DNA of 64,000 nucleotides from a virus: positions 1-64,000 of IMG/VR virus record IMGVR_UViG_3300042296_000700; one strand, 5' to 3'. A model generated the notes under the pieces. It was not told the DNA's origin. It ran no database searches and saw only the letters and a list, made by a program, of their open reading frames with translations. Every line of letters starts with the position of its first letter. Position 1 is the first letter of the stretch. Made by a program: the position numbers and the translations under genes. Positions 9,262 through 41,775 of this stretch are shown here, piece by piece.

Positions 9262-9294
9262 AAATCCTTCTAGGTTTAGTAATAGTCTGTTGAC

Positions 9295-10150: not shown

Positions 10151-10162
10151 CGTTTAGTTGTT

Positions 10163-10444: not shown

Positions 10445-10461
10445 TTATCCTCACTAATTGT

Positions 10462-13720: not shown

Positions 13721-14593
13721 TTAGATACCTGCGGATGTCCAAGTTTCAATAGTAATCCTGTGCCAGTCAACAACATCTTCCATTGTTTTCTTGCCCCATG
13801 TGTAGCCTCCTGCGAGGGCAAATACTGCTGGGGTGTCTGCAATGAAATCACTGACTGCTTTTTCGCGCCAAATAATGTCGCTTAGTGATACACCACTGTT
13901 GAGAGGGTCCATGCCTGCGTTGTAGATAATTAGGTCAAATGCGTCAAGTTCTCCTGCGTAATTTAACGCTTTGCCAATCTCTTGACGGTAATCCTGATGT
14001 CCTGCGTAAGTAATGCTACTTTCGCCTTCGGGTTCGTAGGTGTCAAATGCCGCGCAAGTTACGTCAACCTGTACAACCGACGGTAGGTGTGCGTTGATAA
14101 TGTCCCACGTTCCACCGCCTGCGTGTGCGTCAAAGTCAAGAATAAGAACGCGAGGTGCGTCCATTTCCACTGCTTGCCGTGCCGCGACTGCTAGACCGTT
14201 GATTGTGCAGAAACCCTTACCACTGTTCCTGTTGGCATGGTGGAGACCAGATGAGAGACTTCCTGCTCTGGTGTCTTCGCTGAGTGCTGCCGTAGTTGCT
14301 GCAACTAGACCAGTGCTATGGGCTAACGCCATAGTCCAAATTCCTTCATCCCAGTCAAATCCTTGAGATTCCGCCATGCTGAGTGGTGTCCCTGTCTGTA
14401 CTGCATTTACGTATTTTTTGTCGTGGACAGTGGGGAGTAGGTTGTAGGACTTTTCTGTAAACAGAATGGGGTCGTAGATGATTAAGTCGTCAATAGGGTT
14501 GGTTGCTAGTGATTCCCTGATGTGCTTGGATTTGCGAGTTGTGTCGTATGCGTATTTTGCCGCTACGTAATCGTCGTTGTAAAAAAGTTTCAT
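13721..14593 (-). CDS. histone deacetylase-family (AcuC/HdaH-like) Zn-dependent deacetylase
   Basis: GLHHA...GFC..NG, LDFDAH.GGGT, YNAGMDP, GGY; start at 14593 fits the promoter. Confidence 0.92.
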   Translation of the reverse strand: MKLFYNDDYVAAKYAYDTTRKSKHIRESLATNPIDDLIIYDPILFTEKSYNLLPTVHDKKYVNAVQTGTPLSMAESQGFDWDEGIWTMALAHSTGLVAATTAALSEDTRAGSLSSGLHHANRNSGKGFCTINGLAVAARQAVEMDAPRVLILDFDAHAGGGTWDIINAHLPSVVQVDVTCAAFDTYEPEGESSITYAGHQDYRQEIGKALNYAGELDAFDLIIYNAGMDPLNSGVSLSDIIWREKAVSDFIADTPAVFALAGGYTWGKKTMEDVVDWHRITIETWTSAGI

Positions 14594-14622
14594 GTTTGTT
14601 CTTTCTAGTAGTTGTTTGCTAT

Positions 14623-14651
14623 ATATTACACTAATTATTGACAAATGTCAA
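14623..14651 (-). promoter_or_regulatory. near-consensus sigma-70 promoter for the deacetylase
   Basis: TTGACA-17 nt-TAATAT. Confidence 0.7.
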
Positions 14652-14652
14652 A

Positions 14653-15135
14653 TTAGAGGTTTTGGTGCCTATGTGCGTAAAGAATGGGTATTAGGTCTAA
14701 TTTGAAAATCTTTTCCAGATGCTTGACAATGAGACGGTTCGGGATGAAGTCTCGCTTGCTGTCACGTCCCCAGTGTTCTTCCACTGGCTGTTCGTCTCGT
14801 AGCGTTATGAACGCATCTTCGGGCTCTACGCCACGAGCGATTGCAATTCCCCATGCTGTAGAGGTTGACCGTGACATGCCTGCGTGGCAGTGGACTAGGA
14901 GGTCATCTTTGTCCATTCCCCAGTTAATCATCTGCTCAATCTGTTTTAAGGTTGGCGCACGGTTGCCTATTGTGGTGTCGCCAAATTCAACGACAAGGTG
15001 CTGTGGGTGGTTCCAGTTGACTTCTGACGCCAACGGTCCTGCTGTGATGATTGCTGAAAATTCGTTTTTCCATGCTTCTGCTTCTTTGATGTTGCCAATT
15101 ACTGGTAGTGTGACGTTTGTCATAAGTTCCTTCAT
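14653..15135 (-). CDS. CX5R protein tyrosine/dual-specificity phosphatase
   Basis: LLVHCHAGMSRS P-loop, upstream FGD acid loop, PN motif. Confidence 0.9.
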   Translation of the reverse strand: MKELMTNVTLPVIGNIKEAEAWKNEFSAIITAGPLASEVNWNHPQHLVVEFGDTTIGNRAPTLKQIEQMINWGMDKDDLLVHCHAGMSRSTSTAWGIAIARGVEPEDAFITLRDEQPVEEHWGRDSKRDFIPNRLIVKHLEKIFKLDLIPILYAHRHQNL

Positions 15136-23557: not shown

Positions 23558-23871
23558 ACCTCAGGGTAGAGGATTTTGACTTTACGTGGAATTGAACTCT
23601 TGCCGTCTTTTTCTGTCAAATCGCCCATATAGAAACCGTTATTGGAGAACTTGACAAAAACCTTCTCTAGTTCTTTTTGGTTTTTCTTTTGGCTGAAATA
23701 CCAGACAGTTGAGTGAATTAGTTCGTCATCATCTGTTTCCTCATCAAGCGCATTCGCTATGAGAAGGACTTTACGACGCACCTCTTCAGGGAGTTTCATA
23801 AACTCCTCTTTGATGTGGGCAATGTTTTGAGGTGTTAAACCAATTTTTTTAGAAATTTTATTCTTCGTCAC
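23554..23871 (-). CDS. small protein downstream of the GNAT effector (candidate immunity protein)
   Basis: Overlaps the stop of the 1213-aa gene. Confidence 0.55.
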   Translation of the reverse strand: MTKNKISKKIGLTPQNIAHIKEEFMKLPEEVRRKVLLIANALDEETDDDELIHSTVWYFSQKKNQKELEKVFVKFSNNGFYMGDLTEKDGKSSIPRKVKILYPEV

Positions 23872-26800
23872 GTGGGTCCGCCTTAATCAAGTTCTTGTCA
23901 AGATAGAAAGTTCCGCTTGCTAGTCCCATGTTGGTTGCGAACCAGTTGCGCAGTTCTGTATCGCGGGCTCGCTTTGCTTCGCGTTCGTCGTTGCCGTAGG
24001 GGTTTGTTAGTGCATAAATAAAATCCATATGCCTGACGGAGTTTGGATTGTCTTTGTGTTTATCTATCAAATATTCAATGATATTAGCATCTTCTTCGTT
24101 TTTGATGATTGAAGTGTCGCCACGCCGAAAAGCGTTGAGTTGTGTATTCAAATTACTGACATGCGTGTTTGGGATAGGGGCTTCAAATCCAATGCGACCC
24201 CAAACATAAGGTCCATCGTCAGCAGTGCCTACAGTAATTTTTTCAAATCCAGCAGCCTTAGCATACATGAAAGCGTGCTGGTTGTAAACAGTTTGAATTC
24301 CATTGTTCTTGTGGTCGTTGCCACGAATAAACATTGTGCCGTTTCTAACCACACCTGCGTTGAGGTCTAAGTATCTACTACTGTCTCCCATGTTTGTCCA
24401 AGTGCCATTTGCGTTTTTTACCTCAAAATTAACGCTCACAGTGATTTGATTACCACTCAGACTGGCAGTTGCAACAGACCTGTATGTTTTACCGTTTGAG
24501 CCTTGAATTTCAGGGTGGGAGTACATTGCCTTAGCCCACGCTTCTAGTTGATTTCTTGCCGCTGATGCTTCTGGTCCACGTCCTTGTGCGTCGCGTAAAA
24601 GTTCTTGGCGTTTTTGAAGTGTCATTTCTTTCCATGGTGCGTTGCCTGCGCCGTATTGCCTATCTAGATGAAGAGCAAGTGTTCTTTGTCGTCCTTCAAT
24701 TGCGTCCTTCACACGCTGTTCTGCTTGACGTGCCAATTCAGGGTTTAGTGGTTCTGGTGCTGGCGCCGCAAGTGCTGCATCAATTTCCGCTTTCCGTTCT
24801 TTATATCTGTCGCGATGTGCAATTGCCACAATGAGGTCACGTTGCGCTACAAGGAAATTATCGTTTACTCCTTGTCCTTCGCGAGCGTCATAATTACGCT
24901 TTTTGGAAGCAACAACCTCATCTAGTTCGGCAAGACGCCGCTCATATGCTGGCAATATGCCGTCCCTATCGCGCATCCGCATGAGGGCGTCTCCGCCACC
25001 ATTGAAAGCACCGTTGAAGTCGGCATCAGCCCTGCCAACGCCGTCGTTCACAGCATTGTTTGCGCGAGATACGCGCTCGTTGACATTAGGCGCACCCTGT
25101 GCTTCAAAGAAAGCGCGCCATTGTGCAGGGGTGCGCCCTCTGACGTCATCGTCTCCACCAATACGGGTTGCTTGTTGTGCTGCCGCAGAAGGTTCTCTTG
25201 GAGCAGATGGCGTCCGACTTGGTTCTGGAGCATTTGGTGCGTCGTTGCCTTCAAGTTCTGCAGCACGACGCTTGAAAGCATTTCGTGTATCCATAACACG
25301 TTGAACTTGACCATTTTTGTCAATTACGTTTCTTGCTGCGTCTTCTTTGTCTTCATCTCCAGCATTACCAAAGGCGTCTGCCGCTTCACGAAGTTCTCTC
25401 CGTGCATCATCAAGCGCATTCTCCTGAACTTGGACGTTCGCACGAAGTTCAACAAGGTCACCACGCCTCCACGCAGCCATATTCTGAGGAAGTTGAACAT
25501 CGCGGTTTTGGATGATTCCTTCTTGAACTCGCCTTGCATAATCATCATCCATATTGTTGCCAAGCATGCGACGAAGTTGGGCTTTATCAAGACCGTCATC
25601 TGGAATATCAAATCCCATACGAAGGTCGGCTGGCACGCTACGAGGGTTACGCGCTGCTTCAACCTGACGCCTAGCCTGCTCTACAGTATTTTCAGCACGA
25701 GCAGGCTGTCCGTTGTTACGGTCATAAACCTCTTGCCATGCGTCCCTATAATCCTTGAGACCCCTTCTGACTTGACCAATACTAATTCTTTCACCGTCGT
25801 CGCGCTCAAAGAAATCCCTGTCAGCAATTTGTCCACGATTAATCGCATCCTCTAGACGGTCCCACCTCGCTTTAGAAATCGTAACTTTCTGGCGCGCTTC
25901 GTCTGCCTTGCTTCTTTTTCTAGCAGCACTGTCAGGGAAGTTGCGGTCGTCATTCAAAATCATTATTGGGTCATTGGGCAAAATGTCACGAAGTACGTAT
26001 TCCTTAAAATTGTCGTCATTTAAGACTTGGTTTAAATCACCTGCTCGTACACCACCCCCTGACGTGAATAGGCGTCCCCTGTTAGTTGCGTTATCGCTTT
26101 GACCAGCACGAGCAGGCTTGCGTGGGTCAGGAAGTGACCTCAACTGACGTTCTCTGCGAACGTCCGCAAGTATCATTCCAACTCTTGTTCTGTCTAAATC
26201 TTCACGCTGTATGTTGTCACGCTGGTTTTGAACTAGTTTTTCAAGTTCCAACAGGTCAGCGTCTTGAACTTGGTCAAGATTATTAAAGACATTCCTTTGT
26301 TCTTCATTAAACTCCCCAGCAAAGAAGTTGTCTTCAGGATTTTCTTGCATTTGGCGATTTATGCGCTTTGCGTCGCGTTCAACTCCGCCTAAACGACCAG
26401 CATTGTCGTCTCTTGTAATCGTGCGAGCAGGTGTTGTTTCGCGAGCGGCAGGTGCTGCGGATGGTTTGCGAGCCGCCGCACCTTCATTTTGACGAGAAGC
26501 AGTATCCCTATTATTGGCTGGTCGGCGACGACCCGCATTAGCAGGACGACGTGGAGCAGCAGGGCGAGGTCTTGCTGCAGGAGCAGGTGCAGCATCAACA
26601 TCAGTTCGTGCAGCACCAGGATTGTCAATTTCTCGTTGCATGCGACGTTCTTCAGATGCGCGCAGGTTTCGGCGTGGGCGTTTGGCGGCTGCAGGACGAG
26701 GGCGTGGGTTAGCATTATTTTGGCGACGACCGCGAGTTGCTTTACGTCGTTTCAACTCTGCCATTACTCGTTTGTAGTCGTCGCTATCCCTGCCATCGGT

Positions 26801-27499
26801 AGCGTTTTCTAACTCTTCACGCATTTCCTCTAAAACTTCAGTCGGTTCGGCTGCGAGAAGGTTGACGTCTTCACGTTCTTCACGAGCAGGACGAGCAGGG
26901 GTATCTGCGGCGTTGTCGGGAGTCAAGTCTCGTCCTCTGTCACGACCGCGAGGTGCTTGGGGAGCATCAGCGCGGCGAGCACGCCCTTCACGATTTGGCT
27001 TATCTGGGTCAACTACTTCGGCAAGACGACCCGCTGCTCGCTCAAGACGACCAGTAGGACGAGGCACTTCTGCGCCAACACGATTACGTTGTCCGCCTTG
27101 GCGACCTGTTAGGTCAAGAGCATCACCAACACGACCTGCGGCACGCTCAATTGCGCCTGGTGCTCCAGCCAAACGACCAGCCATACGGTCGTTACGTTTG
27201 CGTAGTTTTCGTTCGCGTCGGCGGTCACCAACATTTTCAAGACGTTCACCTAAATCAGAGATTTCATTAGCGAGACGGCGGGCTACACCCCAACCGCAGT
27301 TCCTGCCGAAACGGTCAGTAATTTGACCACCATAACGAGTTCCTACTGGACAACGAAAACCACCGCGGCGACTAGTCCCTGGTACTGCAAGGGATGGGTC
27401 AAATATTGCTCGTGCACGCTTAACTTCGTACAGCATGGAAGAGCGATTGCTTTCCGTTGTAAAGCGAAGAGCCTTATATGAAACTAGGTTTTTGTCCAT
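23858..27499 (-). CDS. large RCPxG-module protein with Arg/Pro/Ala linker and C-terminal GNAT-like domain
   Basis: GGFRCPVGTRYGGQITDRFGRNCG; C-terminal HKNNGIQT...GFEKITV...DDGPYVWGRIGF, similar to 12526-13641; likely start MDKNL at 27499. Confidence 0.75.
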   Translation of the reverse strand: MDKNLVSYKALRFTTESNRSSMLYEVKRARAIFDPSLAVPGTSRRGGFRCPVGTRYGGQITDRFGRNCGWGVARRLANEISDLGERLENVGDRRRERKLRKRNDRMAGRLAGAPGAIERAAGRVGDALDLTGRQGGQRNRVGAEVPRPTGRLERAAGRLAEVVDPDKPNREGRARRADAPQAPRGRDRGRDLTPDNAADTPARPAREEREDVNLLAAEPTEVLEEMREELENATDGRDSDDYKRVMAELKRRKATRGRRQNNANPRPRPAAAKRPRRNLRASEERRMQREIDNPGAARTDVDAAPAPAARPRPAAPRRPANAGRRRPANNRDTASRQNEGAAARKPSAAPAARETTPARTITRDDNAGRLGGVERDAKRINRQMQENPEDNFFAGEFNEEQRNVFNNLDQVQDADLLELEKLVQNQRDNIQREDLDRTRVGMILADVRRERQLRSLPDPRKPARAGQSDNATNRGRLFTSGGGVRAGDLNQVLNDDNFKEYVLRDILPNDPIMILNDDRNFPDSAARKRSKADEARQKVTISKARWDRLEDAINRGQIADRDFFERDDGERISIGQVRRGLKDYRDAWQEVYDRNNGQPARAENTVEQARRQVEAARNPRSVPADLRMGFDIPDDGLDKAQLRRMLGNNMDDDYARRVQEGIIQNRDVQLPQNMAAWRRGDLVELRANVQVQENALDDARRELREAADAFGNAGDEDKEDAARNVIDKNGQVQRVMDTRNAFKRRAAELEGNDAPNAPEPSRTPSAPREPSAAAQQATRIGGDDDVRGRTPAQWRAFFEAQGAPNVNERVSRANNAVNDGVGRADADFNGAFNGGGDALMRMRDRDGILPAYERRLAELDEVVASKKRNYDAREGQGVNDNFLVAQRDLIVAIAHRDRYKERKAEIDAALAAPAPEPLNPELARQAEQRVKDAIEGRQRTLALHLDRQYGAGNAPWKEMTLQKRQELLRDAQGRGPEASAARNQLEAWAKAMYSHPEIQGSNGKTYRSVATASLSGNQITVSVNFEVKNANGTWTNMGDSSRYLDLNAGVVRNGTMFIRGNDHKNNGIQTVYNQHAFMYAKAAGFEKITVGTADDGPYVWGRIGFEAPIPNTHVSNLNTQLNAFRRGDTSIIKNEEDANIIEYLIDKHKDNPNSVRHMDFIYALTNPYGNDEREAKRARDTELRNWFATNMGLASGTFYLDKNLIKADPRDEE

Positions 27500-27506
27500 T
27501 AGATGT

Positions 27507-27755
27507 TCACTTCCCAAACAATTCGCGTACTTTTGCCTCATAATCGCCCGAATAGTCACCCTCGGTGATTTCGCTATAAGTGCTGCTGGTAATAATTTCA
27601 CCGATTTTAGGTTTCTTATCACCTAAAGAATACCATTCGTCAAACGATTCATCTTGCTTGCCGTCGCTATCAAACAGTTTTATGCCGTTGTCTGTCTCAA
27701 TGTAAACATTCTTATATGTTTTGTCTTCAGTTGAAGTTACTACTACGTATTTCAT
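27507..27755 (-). CDS. small acidic protein downstream of the kinase effector (candidate immunity protein)
   Basis: 82 aa, GGAAAAG RBS, fills the gap between two paralogues. Confidence 0.6.
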   Translation of the reverse strand: MKYVVVTSTEDKTYKNVYIETDNGIKLFDSDGKQDESFDEWYSLGDKKPKIGEIITSSTYSEITEGDYSGDYEAKVRELFGK

Positions 27756-27767
27756 TTACTTTTCCAA

Positions 27768-30473
27768 TCAACGGGCTGTTATGAGGTTGTATATTTGTTC
27801 TGGTGTCAAGTTTAAGAGGTATTCCTGCCGAGCGGCAAGCCCATCAACATGGTCATTATGCCCTGGTGAAACGGATAACCCACTAGGGTCGCGCCTTGCT
27901 TCAACTGCATCTCTACCAAAGTCTGCGATATCTCGCTCGCGTTGCGCAGCACGAAGGGCATCTTGTGCTAATCCAATTTCTCGGATTACTTCGGAACGTT
28001 GGTCGTTGCGAAGTTCGGCACGCATCGGGTTGCGATTACCGCCTTGTCCATCCGCGAGCCATGTCCTGAATCCTGATTCGTTGGCATAATCACCTGATTG
28101 AAAATACCCTTGTCGCCCTCTGAACCCAAGTCCGTTATCAATTGGGACGAGATGCTTTTTGCCATTTTGCGTAACAAGAAAGTAGTTTTCGTTATGCCTG
28201 TCTGTGTTCATTATTAGGTAGTCAAGAAATGTTGCGCGAACCTTGTCCTTTACCACATTAGGGACGTCGTTACGACCACGTGGTTTGATAGGACTAGCAA
28301 CGTAGTTGCCGACATGTTCAAACATAATAGGACGAGCCTTTGCTGGAGGTTGACCGTTGAAAGGAGGCCCTGCAAATCTAAACTCACCGACAGGAAAGCC
28401 TAACCGAGCAGCAACATTATTGCCCACAATTTCGTTGAGGTCTTCATTTTTGCCAAACATAAGTTTCCCTGTCCTGCCCCTATGGTCGCCAGAGAATTTG
28501 ACAAAGAATTTTTTACCCGTTGCAGTATCTGTGAACAAATCTGCTGACCCGTTGATTCCGCCTCCTAGTGTGGATTTGGTGAAACGCTTTCCTTGACCCG
28601 AGTTGGCTTTCATTGCATTAAACAGGAAATCATCAGGTACGTCTCTAATGTCTCCGCCGTTGGCGAGGTGTAGGTCTGCGTCCGCTTGTACGTTGATATT
28701 TTTGTTGCCTTTAGGGATATGGCGAATGTCTGGGACACCGTTTGCAATATCACCTATTTTGTTGTCGTTTTGCTTTACCCTAATGTTTGGGGCTTTGCGA
28801 ACTCTGGAACCAGTGCCAGCATTACGTGGTGCTCGTGGTGCTCGCGGAGGACGAGCGGGAGCAGGAGCGGGTGCGGCTTGTTCTCCTAAAATTCTTTCTA
28901 GTTGAGCGATTCTCGCATCGCGATTAGCACCAGGAACATTCTGGTCACGGTCTTCTCGTAGTTGATTCAGTTCCTCACGAAGTCCTGCCTCTTCGGACGG
29001 GGTGAACTGTCGTGCTGCAGGTCTACGTGGACGAGGGGCTGCTGGTTGAACAGCATCTGGCTGGTCATTAGGGCGGGGACGACGATTCGCAGGACGGCGA
29101 CCATTTTGTGCGGCTGCCCCAGTACGACGTCCACGTCCTCCATTCGGGCGAGGACGGGCTGGTGCATTGCCAGCGTCAGGATTGCGGTCACGCCATGCTT
29201 GTTCTACGGCAGGACCGTGGAAACGTTCCCATTCTGAGCGACGCAAGAATCCAGCATTTCCACCTCCGTCACGAATACGACGAACCTCTGCTTGATGCTC
29301 ATTGTATTTACGTGTCTTGTATGTGTCTAGTGATTCCCGTGCACTTGGTGCTCCTGCAGGTACGGGAACTCCGCTCGTATTGTCTACGGGAACATTTCGC
29401 GGTCTTGCAGGGCGAGGATTTGCAGGACGACGCGGTGCAGCAGGACGAGGACGGTTGGCTGGCGCTACTGGGGCGTCGCCTGTTCGTGGAGCGCCAGGAT
29501 TGTCAATTTCGCGTTCCATGCGTCGTTCTTCTGAATCGCGAAGGTTGGGGCGACGACGAGGATTTCGTTGCGGAGCAGCAGGACGAGGATTGCGGGCTGG
29601 TGCTCTCCTGTTGCGGGTGGGCTTGTCGGGGTCAACAACGTCAGCAATTCGCCCTGCGGCACGCTCAAGACGACCAGGTTTCACGGTGTCTACCTGACCT
29701 GTGCGGTTGCGCTGTCCTCCTTGACGACCTCCCATACCAGTGAGGTCAAGCGCATCGCCAACTGCGCGTGCGCCTCGTTCAATTGCTCCGCCTCCAGCAA
29801 GGCGACGAGCCATTCTTTCGTTTCGTCGTGTTACGCGTCGTTCGCGTCGGCGGTCACCAACATTTTCAAGGCGTTCACCGAGGTCAGAGATTTCGTTAGC
29901 CAAACGGCGGGCAACTCCCCAACCGCAGTTCCTACCGAAACGGTCAGTGATTTGTCCGCCATAACGTGTCCCTACTGGACAACGAAATCCGCCACGGCGT
30001 TCTGTGCCTGGTACTGCTAGAGACGCGTCCCAAACTGAACGAGTGCGCTTAACTTCGTATGTGAAAGATGATTTGTTTTGGTCTGCAATAAAAGCGACAG
30101 CCTTGTACTGCACAGCATTTTTCCACGCTTCAACAGGAAATTCGGAGAGTTGAATATCCATAAGGGAGATAACTGGCAGAAGTTCTGCTGAAGCATCTTT
30201 CTTTTCAATTTCTTTAGACGGTTTTGTGAGTGAACGGTTCTTTAATTCTTCTACTACAGAGTCACTAACAGTTGTTTCAAGCGACATTGAATTATCAAGA
30301 GTTACGGTTAGTTCCTCTTTGCTAATCTTTTTCCCAGCGTATTCATCAGCCATCCACTTTGACCACGATTTTGCGGCTGCTACAACAGGATGAAACTGTG
30401 CACCGTCGGGAAGAATTTCAACGAGCGCGTACGGCTTGTTCTCTCTGTCTTTAATGAGAAATCGTGCAGCCAT
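27768..30473 (-). CDS. RCPxG-module protein with C-terminal HipA/PI3K-PI4K-like kinase
   Basis: Gly loop GGGING, FFVK, NEIVG (alphaC Glu), DYLIMNTDRHNENY catalytic loop, PIDNG. Confidence 0.85.
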   Translation of the reverse strand: MAARFLIKDRENKPYALVEILPDGAQFHPVVAAAKSWSKWMADEYAGKKISKEELTVTLDNSMSLETTVSDSVVEELKNRSLTKPSKEIEKKDASAELLPVISLMDIQLSEFPVEAWKNAVQYKAVAFIADQNKSSFTYEVKRTRSVWDASLAVPGTERRGGFRCPVGTRYGGQITDRFGRNCGWGVARRLANEISDLGERLENVGDRRRERRVTRRNERMARRLAGGGAIERGARAVGDALDLTGMGGRQGGQRNRTGQVDTVKPGRLERAAGRIADVVDPDKPTRNRRAPARNPRPAAPQRNPRRRPNLRDSEERRMEREIDNPGAPRTGDAPVAPANRPRPAAPRRPANPRPARPRNVPVDNTSGVPVPAGAPSARESLDTYKTRKYNEHQAEVRRIRDGGGNAGFLRRSEWERFHGPAVEQAWRDRNPDAGNAPARPRPNGGRGRRTGAAAQNGRRPANRRPRPNDQPDAVQPAAPRPRRPAARQFTPSEEAGLREELNQLREDRDQNVPGANRDARIAQLERILGEQAAPAPAPARPPRAPRAPRNAGTGSRVRKAPNIRVKQNDNKIGDIANGVPDIRHIPKGNKNINVQADADLHLANGGDIRDVPDDFLFNAMKANSGQGKRFTKSTLGGGINGSADLFTDTATGKKFFVKFSGDHRGRTGKLMFGKNEDLNEIVGNNVAARLGFPVGEFRFAGPPFNGQPPAKARPIMFEHVGNYVASPIKPRGRNDVPNVVKDKVRATFLDYLIMNTDRHNENYFLVTQNGKKHLVPIDNGLGFRGRQGYFQSGDYANESGFRTWLADGQGGNRNPMRAELRNDQRSEVIREIGLAQDALRAAQRERDIADFGRDAVEARRDPSGLSVSPGHNDHVDGLAARQEYLLNLTPEQIYNLITAR

Positions 30474-30475
30474 AA

Positions 30476-32677
30476 CTAAATCCCTACTAGTTTGTTGAAT
30501 TGGGTGTTTTGTTTTTTCAACGTATCTCTACGTGTCGTGAATAGTCTCTTGACCATTTCAAGGTGACGCTTTTCTGCATCAGAAAGCATTCCATCGGCAG
30601 TAAGCCTGCTCACATATTCATCCCAGTTGAACGCATCAATCTTCTTAAATAAGTCATCAACAAGACTTGCAAGCATTTTACGCTCTGATTCACTTAAAGA
30701 ACCGAAACTATCTTTATAAACACGAGCACCACGCTCATCAAGATAATCAGGAATGTCAATTTTGAACCGTCGTGCAATTTCGGCAGCGGTCAATCCAGCC
30801 ATATTTGACAACTCGTTACTACTTGGAATAACGGTAATCCGAGAACCATCGCGGACTGCAGAAAGTGTTGCAGGAGAGCGGTCACGACGGTCGGTCAAAT
30901 AATCGGCGATGGCTAAGCGAAGAATGTCTGCTTTAGGAATCTTGTCAAACTCCAGTGAAGTATCAAACCGTGTTTCGCCTTGACTGATGTCATTCATGAT
31001 GAGGTCACGCTTTGAGGCACTGCCACCAATTTTGGTATTAGGCATTTTGAGACCTACATGTGAAGCAATATCTGCGTACACCTTTTCCGAGACACTGCCG
31101 TACGTGACGGTTTCTGGAACTTGGAGAACAGATTTTCCGCTCCCTGCTTGATGCTTAATAATGCCAGTACCAAGCGGAGTTGACTTATAAGATTTGCTGT
31201 TTTTTAATGCGTCAGAAATGAATTCAGAAGGAATGTCAAACGGGTCTCCACCATTATCAAGCATTTTGATTGATTCAGCGAGCGTTGTCGGTGAGTCGTT
31301 CTTTGGTGTTGTGTCTTCACGGATAGTTTCCGTAGGAGCAACTGGCTTAATCTTGCCTTTACCGTTGGACATGAAAGTTTCGTAGACCCAACGGCGTACT
31401 TCAACTTTGCCCCCACGACCATTATTAACTGATATGAGGTCGTTGGGCTTGTCAATATTTGGGAACTTCTCGGTGTATTTGAACGCTCCGCCAGATGAGT
31501 TAGCAAAATCACGGATGTTGTTACCAACATCAAATTGGTCACTTTCACCAGCAACTCTGTTTAGTTGGCGTCCAAATTTACGGCGTTCGCCAACAGTTAG
31601 GTCACGAGCACGCTCAATTGTGAGGGTTGAACCGTTTGGCAGAACATACGTTACTTGCCGTACTGCTGCACCAGATAGGAGGGCAAGGTCGTCGCCAACA
31701 ATGTCTTTCGGTACTTGGATGGGGCGCACCATGACGCTTCCGTCCATGTCGGAGTTTCCACTAAACTTACGCAGCACAGAAGATGGAACGATTGGTTTCA
31801 AGACTACGGCGTCGCGCCGAATGAGTCGTCCCTCTGTTGTTGGTGCGCCAGTAACCGTGCGGATTGCGGCTTGTACTGCTTTTAAGCGTTCTGCTGGCTT
31901 ATCTGCGCCAGTTCTAGGGATTTGTGCCATGCGAAGAATTGATGCAGTGTTGGAAGTTGCTCCACCACTAACTACTTCGGAAAGGCTGTCTGCCTCTGTT
32001 CGTGGAAGTTTGGGTTTGCTGTTTAACCGCCGTGCTGCGCCGAGCGCAACACCGAGGGCAGAAGGAATATCAAACAACTGTGCACCACATGTTGAATAGC
32101 GAGAATCAGTAAATCGTCCACCAAACTGAAATCCTGCAGGACAACGAAATCCTCGTGTCGGTTTTGGTACAACACGGCGAATCTTGCCTAATCCTGGCAC
32201 GTTTCCACCAGGAACTAGAGCGGAGTAAACGCGGGAGCGAATCGGGCTGCGAATTCCTGATAGGTCACCAGGTAGGGCGATTGTGCCCGCTGCCTGAATG
32301 TTTTGACCAAGAGCGCCACTGGAACCAATCACACCAACTTTGACGCTTACCGATGAACCCATGCGGTTGCGGGTTGGCGTGGAGAATGCTGCTGCCTTAA
32401 AGTTGACGACGTTGCGTTCAGTCCCACTTAAATGTTGGTGCATTGCGAGGGACATTGATTTGACGTACGGTTCAAGCGGGCGCTTCTGTGCTGTAAAGTA
32501 TTCGCCGTTTTCAATACGTGTACGTGTTACCTGAGACTTTGTACTACTTGGGTTAAATGGAATCTTGATATAACCATCGCCGTCAACAACCGTACGAACA
32601 AAAGAACTGTCTTTACGCAGCAAAGGGCGCTGATGTCGCAAAAAACTATTTATTGAACTTTTGCTATCAACGCTCAT
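30476..32677 (-). CDS. RCPxG-module protein with degenerate kinase-like C-terminus (pseudokinase)
   Basis: RGFRCPAGFQFGGRFTDSRYSTCG; SEKVY..IA..VGL..P, DYLTDRRDRSPATL, IPSSN (lost His/Asn and the D of the PIDxG motif). Confidence 0.7.
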   Translation of the reverse strand: MSVDSKSSINSFLRHQRPLLRKDSSFVRTVVDGDGYIKIPFNPSSTKSQVTRTRIENGEYFTAQKRPLEPYVKSMSLAMHQHLSGTERNVVNFKAAAFSTPTRNRMGSSVSVKVGVIGSSGALGQNIQAAGTIALPGDLSGIRSPIRSRVYSALVPGGNVPGLGKIRRVVPKPTRGFRCPAGFQFGGRFTDSRYSTCGAQLFDIPSALGVALGAARRLNSKPKLPRTEADSLSEVVSGGATSNTASILRMAQIPRTGADKPAERLKAVQAAIRTVTGAPTTEGRLIRRDAVVLKPIVPSSVLRKFSGNSDMDGSVMVRPIQVPKDIVGDDLALLSGAAVRQVTYVLPNGSTLTIERARDLTVGERRKFGRQLNRVAGESDQFDVGNNIRDFANSSGGAFKYTEKFPNIDKPNDLISVNNGRGGKVEVRRWVYETFMSNGKGKIKPVAPTETIREDTTPKNDSPTTLAESIKMLDNGGDPFDIPSEFISDALKNSKSYKSTPLGTGIIKHQAGSGKSVLQVPETVTYGSVSEKVYADIASHVGLKMPNTKIGGSASKRDLIMNDISQGETRFDTSLEFDKIPKADILRLAIADYLTDRRDRSPATLSAVRDGSRITVIPSSNELSNMAGLTAAEIARRFKIDIPDYLDERGARVYKDSFGSLSESERKMLASLVDDLFKKIDAFNWDEYVSRLTADGMLSDAEKRHLEMVKRLFTTRRDTLKKQNTQFNKLVGI

Positions 32678-33129: not shown

Positions 33130-35511
33130 TTACGAAACACTTTCCTCGTCTGGCGTTGACGGAGCGGACGCCCATCGGATTTGTTGCTGAACGTCTTCAA
33201 GCAACTGTTTACGCACGCGTGCCCCCCAAATGTCGGTAATGCGGTCTCCAGCCTTGCCACCGTCATATTTTGTTGGGTCTCCTAAATCAAGACCATCATA
33301 AGAACCAAAAATGACTTTAGCATTCGGAGCCTTTTCGGCGACCAATGAAGTAATTCGCTCCATTTCCATGGCAGATATCAAACCATTGAGTTTTAACTCA
33401 TCTCTCATTGCAGAAGCCTGATTCTTGGTATTATCTGGTTGAGCGTTTGTTACCTTCCATCCAGAAATTTTTGCACGTGCAACTTCTATCTCGCCCATTG
33501 TGAAACCTGCGGCAAGCAACTGTTCAGTAGAAAGATGCTGGTCTTCAATTTTTTGAATCAATTCTGCGCCATCAACGCCGTTGGGGTTAAACTGGTTTTT
33601 GTAAGTTGGGAACAATTTCGTTGCATCAAGTTTGATTTCCTTAATGTCTTGAGCGGTGAATCCTCCAAGTATTTGTGATTCCGTAAATTGACCATTTTGT
33701 TCTAGTCCACTTTTATTCCAGTTAACAAAATCTTGCGTAACGTGGGTTCGTAATAGGCGATTGATGTTGTCGTTCATGTCGCTGCTGTCCAAGTGACCAG
33801 CGATTGATTCAATTAGTTCCTCGTCTGATGCGCCAACTGCCGCAGTGCCTCTTGCTTGATTAAGGATGCTGTCCTTATGGTGAATTGTTGTCCTATCGGC
33901 AACCTCTGGGTGAAGTACAAATTCCATGTCTCCATAGCCGATTCCATTTCCAGCAAATGCACCTACAAACTCGTCAGTAACCCCTGCTGCACCCCTACCA
34001 GGAATGGTCAAGTAGTGGTCTGTGGTGAATAGTTCCATTCCTTCTTTTGCGTTGTTCTCATCTGTGATTCGTTTTAACTCGTCGTCCCAGAAAGTAAAGC
34101 GACTAAAACCGTATACAGGGCGAACACCAGAACCGTGTACTGCTCCGACACTTGCTTCATATTGTCCACGGCTGCCAAGTAGTGATGACATAGCATCACC
34201 AACCTTGGCATCAGTTTTGACTTCCATCGGAAGGTAGCCATCTGTTAAATATGCTTCTAAATGTTGCCCTTTAGCCCACACTGAGGCTTCAGGTTTGCGG
34301 GCTTTTGCAATCGTTAATGCAGTCTGTTCTATCGCTGCAATTACTTCATCATCAGTGTGCGTGAGGATAAATTCATGCGTTTTGGGGTCTATAACTTTGT
34401 CAAATGGAAGTCCATTTATGTCGGTCTGGATGCCTGATTCAATCATGCTGCGAAGGTCGGAAACCTTTTCTGCCATCATTGTCCTGCGTTGCGTCTGTCG
34501 TTCTTTCAGAGTCAAAATGGCTTTACCTGCATAGAAGCCAGAATCATTTATTGCTTTAATGTCCTCATCCGTAGGCTTGCCCCACTTCGGAGCCTTGGCG
34601 AGAACCTCGGCATTGAAGTCTTTGATTTGTGCAGATGTTGCGTGCTCAGCACTTGGAAGTCCGAGTAAGTCTGAAGAATCGGTAAGTTTCCCAACAGCAC
34701 GGTCAACAGCAGTGGGCTCGTTAGCGTTAATGCCTCTAAAACGTTCTTTTGTTGACTTAATAACATCGTTGAATGAACCTTGCATCTTTTCTGAAAGTTC
34801 GCCACCCTTAATACGGAGACGTTTCATTCTTTCGGCAAATGCCTCCTGATATTCGTCAACCTGTTCTTTGGTTTTGTTCCACTTTTCTTTAGCGTTTGCT
34901 AACGCCACCTTGACAGGCACCATGCCACCAGTAACAAATATGCTCGTCAACATTTCAATACCTTCGTTGGTATCAGAGTCACCACTGGCACCAGTGAAGT
35001 CATTTATCATGCTGCCAATGTCGCCGAAATTGCCAAAAAAAGTGCCCCAGTAAGCCGTAGCCCAAGCAAGTTTTTTCACTATCGCTTTTTGTTCAGGAGT
35101 TAAGCGTCGCTTGTCTTTTTCAAGCGTGTCATCAATATCAATACCAAGCGCCCTGAACTCTGCAATAAGTTTAGGTGACGTCTTGCTAGGCACGAGACTT
35201 GATGCTGCTTGGGCGGCAGCATTCGCCACTGTTTCTGCACTTGGAACCATACAGTTAGACATCTGCATGTCGGTAAACTGGTTAGCATTCGGCGTTCCTG
35301 GCGGACACCGCATTTTGCCATTCTCGTCAATAATGATTCCAGCACGACGAGCAGCATGCTGTCCCACTGAAGGAAGTTTATCGTTGTCGCGAACGGTAGG
35401 TCCAAGGAAACCTTTCACCATTACACTTGTGCGGACAACAGAAACTGCTGACGTGAAACCGTCAATACGTTCGTTCGCTATGTCAGGGAGTGACCTCATA
35501 GTCACGGGCAC
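33130..35511 (-). CDS. RCPxG-module protein with C-terminal DUF3626-like domain
   Basis: GKMRCPPGTPNANQFTDMQMSNC; RPVYG...YGDMEFVL.PEV.DRTT...DS...ESQILGG...DI. Confidence 0.7.
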   Translation of the reverse strand: MPVTMRSLPDIANERIDGFTSAVSVVRTSVMVKGFLGPTVRDNDKLPSVGQHAARRAGIIIDENGKMRCPPGTPNANQFTDMQMSNCMVPSAETVANAAAQAASSLVPSKTSPKLIAEFRALGIDIDDTLEKDKRRLTPEQKAIVKKLAWATAYWGTFFGNFGDIGSMINDFTGASGDSDTNEGIEMLTSIFVTGGMVPVKVALANAKEKWNKTKEQVDEYQEAFAERMKRLRIKGGELSEKMQGSFNDVIKSTKERFRGINANEPTAVDRAVGKLTDSSDLLGLPSAEHATSAQIKDFNAEVLAKAPKWGKPTDEDIKAINDSGFYAGKAILTLKERQTQRRTMMAEKVSDLRSMIESGIQTDINGLPFDKVIDPKTHEFILTHTDDEVIAAIEQTALTIAKARKPEASVWAKGQHLEAYLTDGYLPMEVKTDAKVGDAMSSLLGSRGQYEASVGAVHGSGVRPVYGFSRFTFWDDELKRITDENNAKEGMELFTTDHYLTIPGRGAAGVTDEFVGAFAGNGIGYGDMEFVLHPEVADRTTIHHKDSILNQARGTAAVGASDEELIESIAGHLDSSDMNDNINRLLRTHVTQDFVNWNKSGLEQNGQFTESQILGGFTAQDIKEIKLDATKLFPTYKNQFNPNGVDGAELIQKIEDQHLSTEQLLAAGFTMGEIEVARAKISGWKVTNAQPDNTKNQASAMRDELKLNGLISAMEMERITSLVAEKAPNAKVIFGSYDGLDLGDPTKYDGGKAGDRITDIWGARVRKQLLEDVQQQIRWASAPSTPDEESVS

Positions 35512-37125: not shown

Positions 37126-39156
37126 TTACCCGTTTATTGACTTATATCCATTAACTGCCGCATTTATTGCTTCAGTTGCTGACGTGGTTAGACCGCTCAA
37201 ATGAATGCCTTCATCATCAATATAACTATGGATGTTGTGGTATTCAAGCACTGGGTCAATTAATGATTTAACTTCAAACATTTCGTCAATTGCTAACGAG
37301 ATTGTTGCTGAGTCGTATTTGACTTCAACTTCTACCCCGCCAGCGGAACTGATGACTTCTTGGAGCATTACGAGCATGTCTTTGAGTTTCTTCAAGTTAC
37401 GGTTATTGAGTACGCGACCAGCCTTGGTCTCCATCTCATAACTCAATGACTTTTCAAGAGCAGTCATTGCTTGAATCATGCCGATTGCTGGCTTGTCAGT
37501 TCCGCACGACCCTGCGCCTCCGCAGCCGCATCCGCAATCACCATGGTCGTCATCGTCATCATTGCGACGAATGTGGACTACCAAGGTGCGACCTTTGCTT
37601 TCGTCATCAGATTCACCGTAGTGTTCCCAGTTTGACTTCTCTCCAATGAATTTAACGAATTCTGGCTGAGCATCAAGGAACTCCTTGAGATACATCATTG
37701 CCTTTTCCTCAACTTCTTGAGGAGGAACGCCGCTCAAGTCATCTTCGCCTTCGCCCAGTCCCATGGTTTTGCCATCGGGAATCTTGTCAAGACGTGCACT
37801 CCATTCGCTGTCATTCCAAATTGAGCCATTAGAAACGCCGCGAATCTTGTTACGGCAGTTCTTCATGCCGGGGTGATGGCATCCCTCGTTCGGCCAAAGT
37901 CCAGTTGTTTCATGGTGAAGCCAAGCACAAATGTTGTTCAATGGATATAGTTCTGGGTGGTCTGCAAGGATTACTTTGCAACGCCTAAATCCGCCTGGTT
38001 TCTTCATGATTGGACGCCAATACTTAAGCAATGCCTCAAGGTTTCCGCGACGAGGACCGTATCCACGCATAACATCGCCAGTAACCCGTTCTTGGGGGAG
38101 GGCGTCTGGAGGAATTGGTGCCTTGACTTCTTCTTCAACCTCTCCAAGTTCACTAGATTCTTTGCCACTCATGCAGCCACACTTGCAGGCTTCGTACTTT
38201 GGCTTTACGCCTTCTGGAACCATCGGGTTCTTGTCCATATCGTAGTTTGACTCGTATGGATTCTGACCTTCATTGTGGTTTGCTGCTGGATTCTTGCCCG
38301 CTTCGTTTTCGTTTGCTGGGAGGTAGACCATCTGTGGTCGGACGGCAACTGGTGTGCCAAACATGAACTCGTCACCGTCAAAATGGTAGGTGACGCGCAT
38401 TGTCGTCGGTTCTTCGTTGCCTTTTTTGTGGTCAAAAATGACCATGTTCTCTTCTGCTGAACGGACTCGTACGGCACCACCGAAGCGTGTTGCGAGGGCG
38501 CGACTAAGGTTCGCCATGCGACCCATTGCAGGGTTCATTGCTGGCACACCACCGTCTTCGCCACGAGGACCAGAGTAGTCAGCCTCGTTATTGTCTGCTT
38601 CGTAGATTTTTACACTTGGCTGTGTTTGTGCGTGCTTGATAGAGATTGTTCCAGTTAACTGGTTTGCTCCGTGGAGAACAGGGCTGACTTCGTAGAGTTC
38701 TACCTCTTTGAGAATGTTCGCTTGGCGCGATGAGTCATATTCAGCATCAAGGGTTTTGTATCCGATAGACCATTCTTGTTCTGTGCCAAAGAATGAGATG
38801 TCAAGGAATGCTTGTTTGCCGCGCTCAGATTTCAAGTTGAATTGGACGCGAGCGTAAAGTCCACCAATTCCAGCACGCTTCATTTTCATTGGCAGGCGCG
38901 GGTCGTTTGGGTTTACTTCGTAAATTTCAATAACTTTGCCGATTGGCTCGTTCCAATTATGTCCCCAAACAACTCGTGGTTTACGGCGTTTGAGACTTTC
39001 AGTAAAGCAGCCTGGTGCACAAATGTCACCAACACCGTCTTTGTTGCCAAGACCAGCAACGAAACATTCAACTATGCCCTGCGCCTCGTCTACATTGATT
39101 TGACCATTGTCAATCGCTTTGTATTCTGTTGCAGTGATTTCTTGCAGTTGCGGCAT
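37126..39156 (-). CDS. HK97-type prohead protease with a long C-terminal extension
   Basis: D..GD...PG.F..SL, WGHNWN.PIGK, EWSIGY, LYEVSPVL.GAN. Confidence 0.9.
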   Translation of the reverse strand: MPQLQEITATEYKAIDNGQINVDEAQGIVECFVAGLGNKDGVGDICAPGCFTESLKRRKPRVVWGHNWNEPIGKVIEIYEVNPNDPRLPMKMKRAGIGGLYARVQFNLKSERGKQAFLDISFFGTEQEWSIGYKTLDAEYDSSRQANILKEVELYEVSPVLHGANQLTGTISIKHAQTQPSVKIYEADNNEADYSGPRGEDGGVPAMNPAMGRMANLSRALATRFGGAVRVRSAEENMVIFDHKKGNEEPTTMRVTYHFDGDEFMFGTPVAVRPQMVYLPANENEAGKNPAANHNEGQNPYESNYDMDKNPMVPEGVKPKYEACKCGCMSGKESSELGEVEEEVKAPIPPDALPQERVTGDVMRGYGPRRGNLEALLKYWRPIMKKPGGFRRCKVILADHPELYPLNNICAWLHHETTGLWPNEGCHHPGMKNCRNKIRGVSNGSIWNDSEWSARLDKIPDGKTMGLGEGEDDLSGVPPQEVEEKAMMYLKEFLDAQPEFVKFIGEKSNWEHYGESDDESKGRTLVVHIRRNDDDDDHGDCGCGCGGAGSCGTDKPAIGMIQAMTALEKSLSYEMETKAGRVLNNRNLKKLKDMLVMLQEVISSAGGVEVEVKYDSATISLAIDEMFEVKSLIDPVLEYHNIHSYIDDEGIHLSGLTTSATEAINAAVNGYKSING

Positions 39157-39256: not shown

Positions 39257-39595
39257 TTAAGCGACTTTCAGTAAAGTCTTAATCTTTTGGACTAGAGCGT
39301 TCTTCGCAGTTGCGCCGATGACCGACCCAACTGGTTCCCCATCCTTGAACATAATCATGTTTGGGATGCTCATAATGTTATTGGAAGAAGCAAGTTTAGG
39401 GAAATCGTCAATATTTACTTTGAAAAACTTGACTGTTGGTAACTCTTCAGAAACACCAATCAGAATTGGTTCCATCATTTTGCATGGAGCGCACCATTCT
39501 GCCCAAAAGTCAACAAACGCATAACCCGAAGAGATTGATTCCTTAAAATTGGACTCATTCAAATCTTTTATCATCAGTTGAACCTTAGACGGCAA
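39257..39595 (-). CDS. trxA: thioredoxin
   Basis: VDFWAEWCAPCK, SIP, FKDG. Confidence 0.93.
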   Translation of the reverse strand: MPSKVQLMIKDLNESNFKESISSGYAFVDFWAEWCAPCKMMEPILIGVSEELPTVKFFKVNIDDFPKLASSNNIMSIPNMIMFKDGEPVGSVIGATAKNALVQKIKTLLKVA

Positions 39596-41775
39596 CGACA
39601 GTTAATTGTGAGACTTGGTGGGGCAAGGGGGTCACCAGGGAAACGCAGGACTGAGTCATTCAACACAAATCCGTCCCCAAGAGGCACGCTTTTGCCATGA
39701 AGCAGACGGTGCTCGGTGCGAACGGCAGAATCCTTACGCGTTACCCATGTTTTCTCTGTAGCGCCAAGACGCTTACCAGTGAAGTAAATACCAGCATTAT
39801 GTGATGTCTGTGCTTCAAGTTCAGCAATGACTCGCTTCCTCTTGCCAAGCAAATTCACGAATATTGCCGTGAGTGCTGCACGCAATAATCCAATTCTGTC
39901 TTCGTCATCACCAAGCGCCATAGCAATCAAAATTGCTGCTGCAACTTCTTCCTTGGTCGTGCTGTTTGATTTCTTCATCCGTTCAATTTGCTCATCAACG
40001 GTTTTTTCAACATCTGCTTCTTCAACATCTGCAGGCATGTTTGCTTGTTGAGCGCCAGAAGTTACGCCTTCCATGGCGATTGCTTTCAGCACAGGTCGGA
40101 TGTCGTCTTCAAGTTGCTTGTTCCAAGTTGCTTCATCAAAGATTGTGTCAACATCTAATTTCTTGGTTGAAACTGCTTTGCGAGCCTTTGAGCCAGATGC
40201 TTTTTCCAATACGACACGTTGCTGACGCTCATAGACACGCTCTAGGGCGCGTTCAAGAATGTCAGTCCATCGGTCAGTATCTTGTTCTGCCTTTGTATCA
40301 AAATCGTCATACATGTATGAAATGTCTTGTGACTTAACTTCAATGCCACCCATGTTTGCCGAAAGTTGTCCTTCTGGCGGTGGAGGGGTTGCTGTTTCAG
40401 GACTGGTAGGTGCCGCTGCTTCTGGTGCAGGAAGAGCCTCTGGAGCGGGTGGTGATGTTTGAGGAAGACCTTGCTGAGGCATGCCCGCTTGACCAGTGGG
40501 GTCTTGCGCAACTCCAACCATATCAACTGGTTGTTGTTCGTCTGCCTTGAACGGCTTCTCCGTATTTGCAATCGGTGTGAGGTTAGGGTTAGACAGCAGA
40601 CTATCCGCAAGTTCGGAATCAACCTTTTTCTTACCTGTTCCATCACGATATTCGTTAACACTGATGAGACCTTGCTGGTACTCGTCCATGAGGTAACGTG
40701 CGCGTTCCTGTTTTGCAATAATCAGAATTGGGACACTACTGGTATCAAAATCAATGTAATATTTTTCGTCTAGTTCATCAAATGCGCGAGCAAGTGGTTC
40801 TAGGTGAGGGAGCATTGTCTCCATCCAGAACACACGAATTTCTTCCGATGCGTTAGAGAACGTTCGTCCTGCAGCGTTACCAATAACGGATTCAGGAACA
40901 CCAAAGGAAGCAAGAATTTCTTCTTTCTGAATTTGGCGCATTTGCGTATATGCAGCATCGCGTGGAGAAGCGGACGTGTCCACGAAGTCAACGCCATCAT
41001 CTGACGAAATAACAGTAGTTGCGCCAGTGCGACTCAAGTTTCCGCGGAACCTGTTCCGAAGTTCCTCTTTGTCGTCGTCTTCCATTTCTCCACGAACAAC
41101 AAGTAAGCCACCGGGGCGACCGTCGTTTAGGAGGTAGTTGCGATTATAAAGTTTTGAGAGATTTTCAAGTTCAATTGCGATTCCAGCAGACTCCATTGGA
41201 GTGATGGAAAGATATGGGTCTAGCGGGTGTGGGCGACGAATCCAAACAACATCTTCGGGCTTGAGAATAACTTTTGTGCCGTTTCGCATATCCACTTCGT
41301 ATCCAGAGATAAAAGTTTTCGGATGTGGAATTGGTGCTGTGTGCTGGGGCGGAAGAAGGTGGAGGGCAATTATCTCTCCGTTACGTCCTCTTACTTTTTC
41401 AACGAAAACGCCTCTGCTTGACATGAGGAGTTGTGCTGAGAGGCGATAGCGGAAAATAAAAGAGTTTTCGCCTTGGTTTGTTTTGGTATTAAAGATGTCA
41501 AGCAAAGAATTCTTTGACCTGACGATTTCCCCGTGCGGTGAATTGTCTTTGCGTAGAACCATTGGGAGGCGTGCTTGGTTGCCTGCGATGGCGTCAATGC
41601 ATCGGAAGACCCAAGTAACTTTTTGTGCACCTTCGCGATATGCGCGCTCAATGTCCCAATTGTCCTTGTATGGCTTATTTACCATTCCAGGGTTGAATGC
41701 AACTGGGGCACCTGCATTAAGAATGGACTTAGCGTCGCCTTGTTGAAGGTTTTTATTGCTCGTATTCCAACTCAT
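39574..41775 (-). CDS. HK97-family portal protein fused to a C-terminal MuF (minor head) domain
   Basis: WVFRCID.IA, NDGRPGGL, EEI...FGVP.S.IG; C-terminal KTW....D..VR..H..L.G...FPGDP.....INCRC. Confidence 0.92.
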   Translation of the reverse strand: MSWNTSNKNLQQGDAKSILNAGAPVAFNPGMVNKPYKDNWDIERAYREGAQKVTWVFRCIDAIAGNQARLPMVLRKDNSPHGEIVRSKNSLLDIFNTKTNQGENSFIFRYRLSAQLLMSSRGVFVEKVRGRNGEIIALHLLPPQHTAPIPHPKTFISGYEVDMRNGTKVILKPEDVVWIRRPHPLDPYLSITPMESAGIAIELENLSKLYNRNYLLNDGRPGGLLVVRGEMEDDDKEELRNRFRGNLSRTGATTVISSDDGVDFVDTSASPRDAAYTQMRQIQKEEILASFGVPESVIGNAAGRTFSNASEEIRVFWMETMLPHLEPLARAFDELDEKYYIDFDTSSVPILIIAKQERARYLMDEYQQGLISVNEYRDGTGKKKVDSELADSLLSNPNLTPIANTEKPFKADEQQPVDMVGVAQDPTGQAGMPQQGLPQTSPPAPEALPAPEAAAPTSPETATPPPPEGQLSANMGGIEVKSQDISYMYDDFDTKAEQDTDRWTDILERALERVYERQQRVVLEKASGSKARKAVSTKKLDVDTIFDEATWNKQLEDDIRPVLKAIAMEGVTSGAQQANMPADVEEADVEKTVDEQIERMKKSNSTTKEEVAAAILIAMALGDDEDRIGLLRAALTAIFVNLLGKRKRVIAELEAQTSHNAGIYFTGKRLGATEKTWVTRKDSAVRTEHRLLHGKSVPLGDGFVLNDSVLRFPGDPLAPPSLTINCRCRLRFN

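Follow-up and report, generated by a model that had tools for sequence, protein, structure and literature searches.

The 64-kb window analysed here (positions 1 to 64,000 of IMG/VR record IMGVR_UViG_3300042296_000700, part of a 107-kb phage record) carries two adjoining minus-strand genes, designated P0001 and P0002, within an array of large proteins that is flanked by the genes for the prohead protease and the major capsid protein. Judged by its residues, the C-terminal domain of P0001 (K1) looks like an active atypical kinase, and the C-terminal domain of P0002 (K2) is, by sequence and predicted fold, a pseudokinase. Comparison of the K2 family indicates that its inactivation happened once, long ago, and that the domain was then retained. 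P0001 and P0002 are not obligate partners and are independently distributed. An earlier note on this DNA had presented the two genes as an adjacent kinase–pseudokinase paralogue pair, and both open reading frames (ORFs) are as it described them. The genes and domains in question are the following.

27768..30473, minus strand: P0001, 901 residues, a type C variable carrier with a C-terminal putative live kinase (from the ORF and its homologues)
27771..28706, minus strand: P0001 residues 590-901, predicted kinase domain K1 (from Pfam, family invariants and a profile against PDB sequences)
30476..32677, minus strand: P0002, 733 residues, the type B core protein of the head-module array (from the ORF and its homologues)
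30479..31315, minus strand: P0002 residues 455-733, predicted pseudokinase domain K2 (from AlphaFold2, Foldseek, VIA-align and hhalign)

An AlphaFold2 model of P0002 residues 455-733, built with 70 sequences, had a predicted local distance difference test score (pLDDT) of 92.2 and a predicted template modelling score of 0.90. Its top Foldseek matches were CtkA, HipT, HipA, PI4KIIα, CotH and actin-fragmin kinase, and VIA-align gave Z scores of 14.9 for CotH (230 residues aligned, rmsd 3.4), 14.0 for CtkA, 14.0 for PI4KII and 13.0 for HipA. These best structural matches (CotH, 5JD9; CtkA, 3AKJ; HipA/HipT; PI4K type II) extend over 210-230 residues at 11-15% identity, and all of them keep the catalytic residues that P0002 lacks. 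No Pfam family was found for residues 455-733. Profile–profile alignment of the K1 and K2 families with hhalign gave a probability of 99.5% (E 6e-23, 232 columns) and placed Q519 of P0002 at the β3 Lys site, D599 at the catalytic Asp, T604 at the catalytic-loop Asn and S620 at the DFG-like Asp. The pre-kinase motifs (P0001 602-621 and P0002 473-492) were also aligned by BLASTP, with 36% identity over 44 residues (E 7e-4), and the N-terminal 'NGGD..D(V/I)P' helix is kept in both domains. All of the motifs on which the pairing had been based are present, namely the shared pre-kinase motif, FFVK, E, DRHNEN and PIDNG in P0001, and DRSPAT (599-604) and PSSN (618-621) in P0002. The two proteins are thus paralogues in the sense of being homologous; that they form a recent duplicate or a functional unit is not borne out, given an identity of about 17%, the age of the K2 clade and the separate distribution of the two domains.

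The search for relatives of P0002 returned 188 sequences at E ≤ 1e-3; in IMG/VR the protein was confirmed in 151 stretches, from which 80 loci were kept. Residue statistics for K2 were taken from 63 distinct dead-kinase domains. The results showed that the β3 Lys is present in 0/63, the catalytic Asp in 20/63, the catalytic-loop Asn in 7/63 and the DFG-like Asp in 5/63, and that no domain (0/63) keeps the full catalytic set. D599, the catalytic Asp position that P0002 itself retains, is variable among its relatives, yet other sites are conserved: D138 in domain numbering (D592 in P0002) in 63/63, D142 (D596) in 62/63, R146 (R600) in 62/63 and N167 (N621) in 49/63. Clusters of retained residues are found in four parts of the domain: the catalytic loop, the sites directly behind the DFG position, the activation-segment region and the C-terminal helices. 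A tree of 227 domains placed the 64 dead ones in a single clade with support of 1.0 and a stem of 0.85 substitutions per site. The catalytic loss in P0002 is not local decay, since the full set is absent from all 63 relatives and the dead domains belong to a single, well-supported lineage. The earlier note had named two grounds for dropping its observation, a P0002 C-terminus that does not fold as a kinase and homologues that retain the catalytic residues, as in simple decay within this lineage. The C-terminus is predicted with high confidence to fold as a kinase and the inactivating changes are shared by the homologues, and the observation therefore stands.

The catalytic set (β3 Lys, catalytic-loop Asp and Asn, and DFG-like Asp) is complete in P0001, with K659 in FFVK, D758 and N763 in DRHNEN and D779 in PIDNG; the αC Glu is E677/E681, and further kinase residues are D751, N756 and D758-R759-H760, so that P0001 is kinase-competent by its residues, as had been proposed. 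Alignments of 60 and 20 K1 sequences gave the family invariants D60, K70, D162, N167, D169, R170, N174 and D190, which comprise the β3 Lys (K659), the αE Asp, N-x-D-R-H..N (D758, N763) and the DFG-like Asp (D779). For the scan of loci a first alignment (A2) was too diverse and alignment A4 was used. Related loci yielded 22 distinct K1 domains, in which D169, R170, N174 and D190 are present in 22/22, even at low profile scores, and K70 in 21/22. Pfam returned PI3_PI4_kinase for K1 at 29.5 bits, just over the curated cut-off of 27.1, together with weak HipA_2 and Fam20C matches, and the K1 family profile matched the sequences of Fam20C, the pseudokinase Fam20A and PI4KII among solved structures. 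The assignment of a kinase fold to P0001 590-901 comes from Pfam and from the homology to the P0002 domain. The catalytic-loop pattern D..L..N.DRH..N resembles that of the CotH, CtkA, HipA and PI4KII families. Taken together, P0001 shows every hallmark of a working atypical kinase in the CotH/Fam20/CtkA/HipA/PI4KII-like group. A HipA toxin–antitoxin kinase identity for P0001 was considered and rejected, HipA_2 matching at E 0.014 and 15 bits against a cut-off of 27 with no adjoining helix-turn-helix antitoxin; unlike HipA/HipT, P0001 and P0002 have neither a HipB/HipS partner nor the HipA N-terminal subdomain.

For the distribution of the two domains, 55 non-redundant loci were used in which 3 kb or more of sequence lies downstream of the dead-kinase gene, and a live kinase within 10 kb was counted as near. 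The result showed that a live kinase is near K2 in 13 of the 55 loci, and K2 occurs without a nearby K1 in the other 42. A single-sequence search of ten K2-bearing records, seven of them at least 88% complete, found no live kinase; the search recovered four of five known carriers as a positive control, so its sensitivity is good but not perfect. Conversely, K1 lies beside core proteins without K2 in at least 15 loci: the loci found with K1 as bait often (L087, L092-L105, L109) have a type B protein lacking K2 followed directly by a kinase carrier, in many cases with more kinase copies upstream and downstream. Because K1 and K2 each occur without the other, an obligate allosteric pair is unlikely, and the suggestion that P0002 is an allosteric regulator is disfavoured where an obligate role is meant. 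As a side observation, two or three intact kinase copies occur on separate carriers of one head module in L004, L011 and L094-L100. A third K1-like match in the record of locus L019 (G011, 4111-4269) lies in a 681-residue ORF far from the head module.

In the window, 2 nt separate the TAG stop of P0002 from the ATG of P0001, leaving no small ORF between the two, as the earlier note had remarked. Measured from the K2 stop, the first ATG of the next large ORF falls between −74 and +35 nt in 54/55 loci, usually as an ATGA overlap, and the type B gene abuts the next gene in this way regardless of the downstream product. In the window, P0004, P0001 and P0003 (P0003 and P0004 being the other two large array proteins) are each trailed by a small ORF and P0002 by none; in related loci, small ORFs of 80-150 residues trail the variable carriers and never the type B gene. 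The ORF behind the kinase gene is the following.

27507..27755, minus strand: 82-residue ORF after the kinase gene, fast-evolving (one weak positional relative)

Its relative occupies the same place after the closest K1 gene, in L004 (27% identity over 70 residues, E 1.6e-4). A conserved immunity gene was considered for this ORF and rejected, the lone weak positional relative being its only homologue and no Pfam family being found. The ORF is a candidate cognate partner of the kinase, as an inhibitor, an immunity protein or a chaperone.

A second motif shared by P0001 and P0002, which the earlier note had not recorded, is GFRCPxG...TD...CG (P0001 164-183, P0002 about 178-197; BLASTP E 2e-5). 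The RCPxG...TD...C motif is present in all four large array proteins (P0001, P0002, P0003 and P0004) and comes in three flavours: A, RCPPGTPNANQFTD..SNC, in P0004; B, RCPxGFQFGGRFTD..STC, in P0002; and C, RCPVGTRYGGQITDRFGRNC, in P0001 and P0003. The regions that carry it in P0001 and P0002, and the remaining parts of the two proteins, are the following.

32072..32272, minus strand: P0002 residues 136-202, highly conserved, predicted-disordered motif region (pLDDT below 50, near-invariant columns)
31358..31924, minus strand: P0002 residues 252-440, well-folded α/β domain of the type B core (AlphaFold2 pLDDT about 88)
29601..30122, minus strand: P0001 residues 118-291, carrier module with the type C motif at 29925-29984 (BLASTP against P0003)
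28707..29906, minus strand: P0001 residues 190-589, Arg/Pro/Ala-rich low-complexity linker in G+C-rich DNA (from the translation)

P0002 thus consists of a small β domain, the conserved disordered motif region, the α/β domain and the C-terminal dead-kinase domain. The motif region reads PGDxSxIRSPIRSR and then RCPxGFQFGGRFTD..STCG, and lies inside a conserved low-confidence stretch of the model that spans residues 101-251. The N-terminal half of P0002 had no Foldseek match in the PDB at E ≤ 1e-3. For residues 252-440, the best VIA-wide hit (Z 5.1, to JAMM/MPN folds) was within noise, and BFVD returned models that bear the name 'Minor capsid protein' (E 6e-6 to 8e-4), an unverified label; residues 250-445 gave no usable match in the ESM Atlas. 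In P0001, the carrier module is 75% identical to the N-terminus of P0003 (131/175, E 8e-79, BLASTP) and the C-termini of the two diverge. The G+C content is 0.536 at 28001-30000, in the linker region, against about 0.46. The Arg/Pro/Ala-rich linkers of P0001 (190-589) and P0003 (about 215-400) were seen to be partly conserved between the two carriers.

The carrier order A-B-C is conserved across 79 loci, and the position of the array between the protease and capsid genes is fixed in every locus surveyed. Types A and C are variable, ranging from 495 to more than 3300 residues with differing C-termini, and the copy number of type C runs from 0 to 3. The position of type B does not vary, nor does its size when the dead-kinase tail is present. 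The live kinase is a shuffled domain, found 0 to 3 times on variable carriers that lie either upstream or downstream: it is on type A carriers in L004, L005, L009, L011 and L012, and in mid-protein in the giant proteins of L036, L046 and L063. A type B variant of 574 residues without the dead-kinase tail (P0097/P0089-type; L087, L092-L105) has a DUF5872 insertion instead, and this segment is the only part of it that matched cultured phages, in hypothetical proteins of Pelagibacter and Synechococcus phages.

The source is an uncultured freshwater phage with a probable actinobacterial host, the host being suggested by two WhiB-family genes in the record (8514-8702, minus strand, in the window, and 93524-93715, plus strand, in the whole record, G000); WhiB also serves as a host marker in PMC6802176. 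The minus-strand head module runs from portal-MuF through thioredoxin, S78 prohead protease, a PepSY protein, P0004, a small ORF, P0002, P0001, the 82-residue ORF, P0003, a 105-residue ORF and a DUF3721/DUF5824 protein to the major capsid protein. Its members beyond P0001 and P0002 include the following.

39574-41775, minus strand: portal protein fused C-terminally to a Phage_Mu_F domain (residues 644-730)
39257-39595, minus strand: thioredoxin gene between the portal and the prohead protease (Pfam E 4e-25)
37126-39156, minus strand: S78 prohead protease with a C-terminal extension of about 470 residues
35755-37110, minus strand: 451-residue PepSY-domain protein directly after the protease, within the head module
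33130..35511, minus strand: P0004, 793 residues, type A carrier
23858..27622, minus strand: P0003, 1254 residues, a second type C carrier whose C-terminus differs from that of P0001
20880-22181, minus strand: major capsid protein

Elsewhere in the window, two neighbouring genes encode a phosphatase-like protein and a deacetylase.

14653..15135, minus strand: 160-residue dual-specificity-phosphatase-like gene (Pfam DSPc E 4.4e-5, below the cut-off)
13721-14644, minus strand: HDAC-family deacetylase gene next to the phosphatase-like gene (E 2.7e-24)

The phosphatase-like gene was found in 7/10 K1-bearing records and in 0/10 records with the dead kinase only. Of the seven hits, one is marginal; each of the three K1-bearing records without a hit is a fragment whose completeness is at most 45%. 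The K1-bearing set contains lineages as distant from the window as those of the set without K1 (L019, L093/L094). These counts make the phosphatase-like gene a better candidate partner for the live kinase.

Large multidomain 'polyvalent' proteins of phages and conjugative elements have been described (Iyer, Burroughs, Anand, de Souza and Aravind 2017, PMC5512222). According to the kinase, capsid and head passages of that paper, their genes lie in the portal–terminase head module, and the proteins, for which head packaging and injection are predicted, carry kinase, GNAT, ADP-ribosyltransferase (ART) and peptidase domains. The array in the window likewise consists of large multidomain head-module proteins in which effector domains are shuffled as in polymorphic toxins. 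Since kinase, GNAT and ART domains are already found in predicted head-packaged proteins, the view that such a pair is unexpected in a phage head operon was overstated. There are also differences: the polyvalent kinase, reported there from (pro)phages of Verrucomicrobia, Chlamydia and Bacteroidetes, lacks the C-terminal subdomain, whereas K1 and K2 have a full C-lobe, and neither an RCPxG module nor a conserved dead-kinase core protein was found in those same passages. MuF-anchored polymorphic toxins of temperate phages, and the minor head proteins SPP1 gp7 and Mu F, share with the array a conserved N-terminal part, a swappable C-terminal effector and trailing small ORFs; unlike in those proteins, MuF is undetectable in P0001 and P0002, and the MuF of this phage is fused to its portal. 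With T4 Alt and the internal proteins, which a short targeting sequence directs into the head and which are injected along with the DNA (as summarized in PMC5512222), the array shares the concept and no sequence relation, and a targeting role of RCPxG is proposed here by analogy. A literature search on phage pseudokinases and on CotH/Fam20-like phage kinases yielded nothing specific.

The explanation that we favour, and consider moderately probable, is that the array is virion-associated and of the polyvalent type, being packed in the head and probably ejected, with an active kinase in P0001 and, in P0002, a dead-kinase adaptor that is not its obligate partner. The array proteins would be loaded into the head, perhaps via the shared unstructured RCPxG motif, and delivered with the DNA into the host. 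P0001 would combine its N-terminal motif module, the long basic disordered linker and an intact kinase that may modify host proteins early in infection, and the small downstream ORF and the separately encoded phosphatase-like gene are candidate controls on it. The C-terminal domain of P0002 would be an ancient, monophyletic, dead descendant of the kinase fold held under selection, with a cleft that may serve as a binding surface instead of a phosphotransfer site; K2 could then be the adaptor or scaffold part of a head-module core protein whose production keeps pace with that of the downstream carrier. Among the three roles put forward in the earlier note, scaffold is the most plausible.

Several points weigh against this explanation. 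Packaging and ejection are deduced only from gene position and analogy, because no cultured relative carries these proteins. A MuF/gp7 identity of the type B middle domain found no support in the sequence: the domain has no Pfam or PHROG function, its hhalign probabilities against this phage's own portal-MuF domain are 1.4% and 0.1%, and Pfam found no Phage_Mu_F (PF04233) in P0001, P0002 or 72 type B relatives; at the level of fold, the BFVD matches to 'Minor capsid protein' models are a lead. The K1 search missed one of five known carriers, and the co-occurrence counts, those that associate K1 with the phosphatase-like gene (Fisher p ~0.003) included, take no account of shared ancestry. The conservation of D596, R600 and N621 in the P0002 cleft could equally mean non-canonical catalysis, and K1 and K2 may interact in a lineage-specific way in this phage; both are weighed below.

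A bolder version, which we put forward tentatively and hold to be unlikely though worth stating, is that RCPxG...TD...C is the address tag of an undescribed cargo system. K2 would be its docking module, a former effector kinase that, while the head is being loaded or its contents ejected, holds or orders the variable effectors or a host target, and the live kinases would be interchangeable payloads restrained by the co-inherited phosphatase.

Precedents for kinase-fold enzymes with a shifted active site are the AMPylase SelO and the glutamylase SidJ, and the P0002 domain might likewise be a repurposed enzyme using D596, R600 and N621. The near-invariance of the first two and the frequent retention of the third, in or next to a catalytic loop whose canonical residues vary, speaks for this, and the K2 fold is strongly conserved. 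We nevertheless regard repurposing as improbable, as the sole conserved Lys/Arg of the N-lobe is R557 (R103 in domain numbering), the αC Glu is poorly conserved (20/63), and neither a Gly-rich loop signature nor a conserved metal-binding Asn/Asp pair is present.

Fam20A, a pseudokinase, is an obligate activator of the kinase Fam20C, and like K1 and K2 the two are homologous dead and live atypical kinases; the K1 profile matches both (E 3.8e-4 and 6.6e-3), and they are among its best solved sequence relatives. K2 might by analogy heterodimerize with the P0001 kinase in this lineage, activating it or setting its specificity. Adjoining, translationally coupled genes, the common 'NGGD..D(V/I)P' helix and the placement of a K1 carrier after K2 in the relatives closest to the window (L002, L004, L006, L009, L011 and L012) all accord with such a pair. 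Unlike Fam20A and Fam20C, however, K1 and K2 are distributed independently and show no obligate co-occurrence: K2 is kept without K1 in 42/55 loci and ten whole records, K1 is common beside type B proteins without K2 and also occurs upstream on type A carriers in several copies, and the coupling of the K2 gene holds for any downstream gene. A pairing of this kind thus seems rather doubtful.

It is comparably doubtful that the array proteins are not packaged and act late in the cytoplasm or after secretion, for example as toxins against competitors or grazers, with P0002 as a decoy for a host antitoxin or kinase substrate. The small ORF behind each variable carrier does recall toxin–immunity cassettes, ADP-ribosyltransferase toxin genes have been reported in freshwater actinobacterial phages and read as a 'Trojan horse' strategy (PMC6802176), and packaging, as said, is deduced from position and analogy. 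On the other hand, the protease–capsid position is conserved and fixed in every locus, a common unstructured motif suits a loading or processing signal, and neither signal peptides nor genes for secretion came to notice. Nothing specific supports a decoy, and the earlier note's version of it, aimed at host antitoxins, found no supporting evidence either.

That the P0002 C-terminus is a functionless decaying relic is scarcely credible: K2 does lack catalytic residues and some type B proteins dispense with the domain entirely, but it is retained with invariant positions in relatives down to 24% identity, its alignment yields the pLDDT-92 model, and it forms a single old clade, all of which already contradicts this idea.

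The P0002 pseudokinase is fixed on a core head-module gene in a large clade of uncultured freshwater phages that are abundant. To our knowledge, virus-encoded pseudokinases with a conserved role have rarely been described. The phages offer a natural contrast in which the same fold is live on the shuffled carriers, 21 of 22 domains conforming, whereas all core proteins that have it carry a dead copy, and this contrast could reveal the domestication of an effector domain into a structural or adaptor part. The RCPxG motif and the kinase–phosphatase co-occurrence are testable handles on the loading and timing of host-modifying enzymes. If the proteins are not packaged, the finding shrinks to a new atypical kinase family and its dead relatives in phage genomes.

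Some further observations concern the module and its relatives. The thioredoxin gene lies in a module whose array proteins all have the two-cysteine RCPxG...C motif, and a redox connection is conceivable. When 50,697 phage records were searched with the region (megablast) and with P0002 (tblastn), no cultured relative turned up, and the K1 domain gave a single weak match among cultured phage records, in a Vibrio phage. Cultured Gordonia myophages have a capsid protein with about 49% identity, and their portal–protease space is an effector island with other content; in Gordonia phage ChisanaKitsune (L082, MZ820089.1, locus 6644-11609), an RNA ligase, a VIP2-like ADP-ribosyltransferase and a 970-residue HNH protein lie between the portal and the protease.

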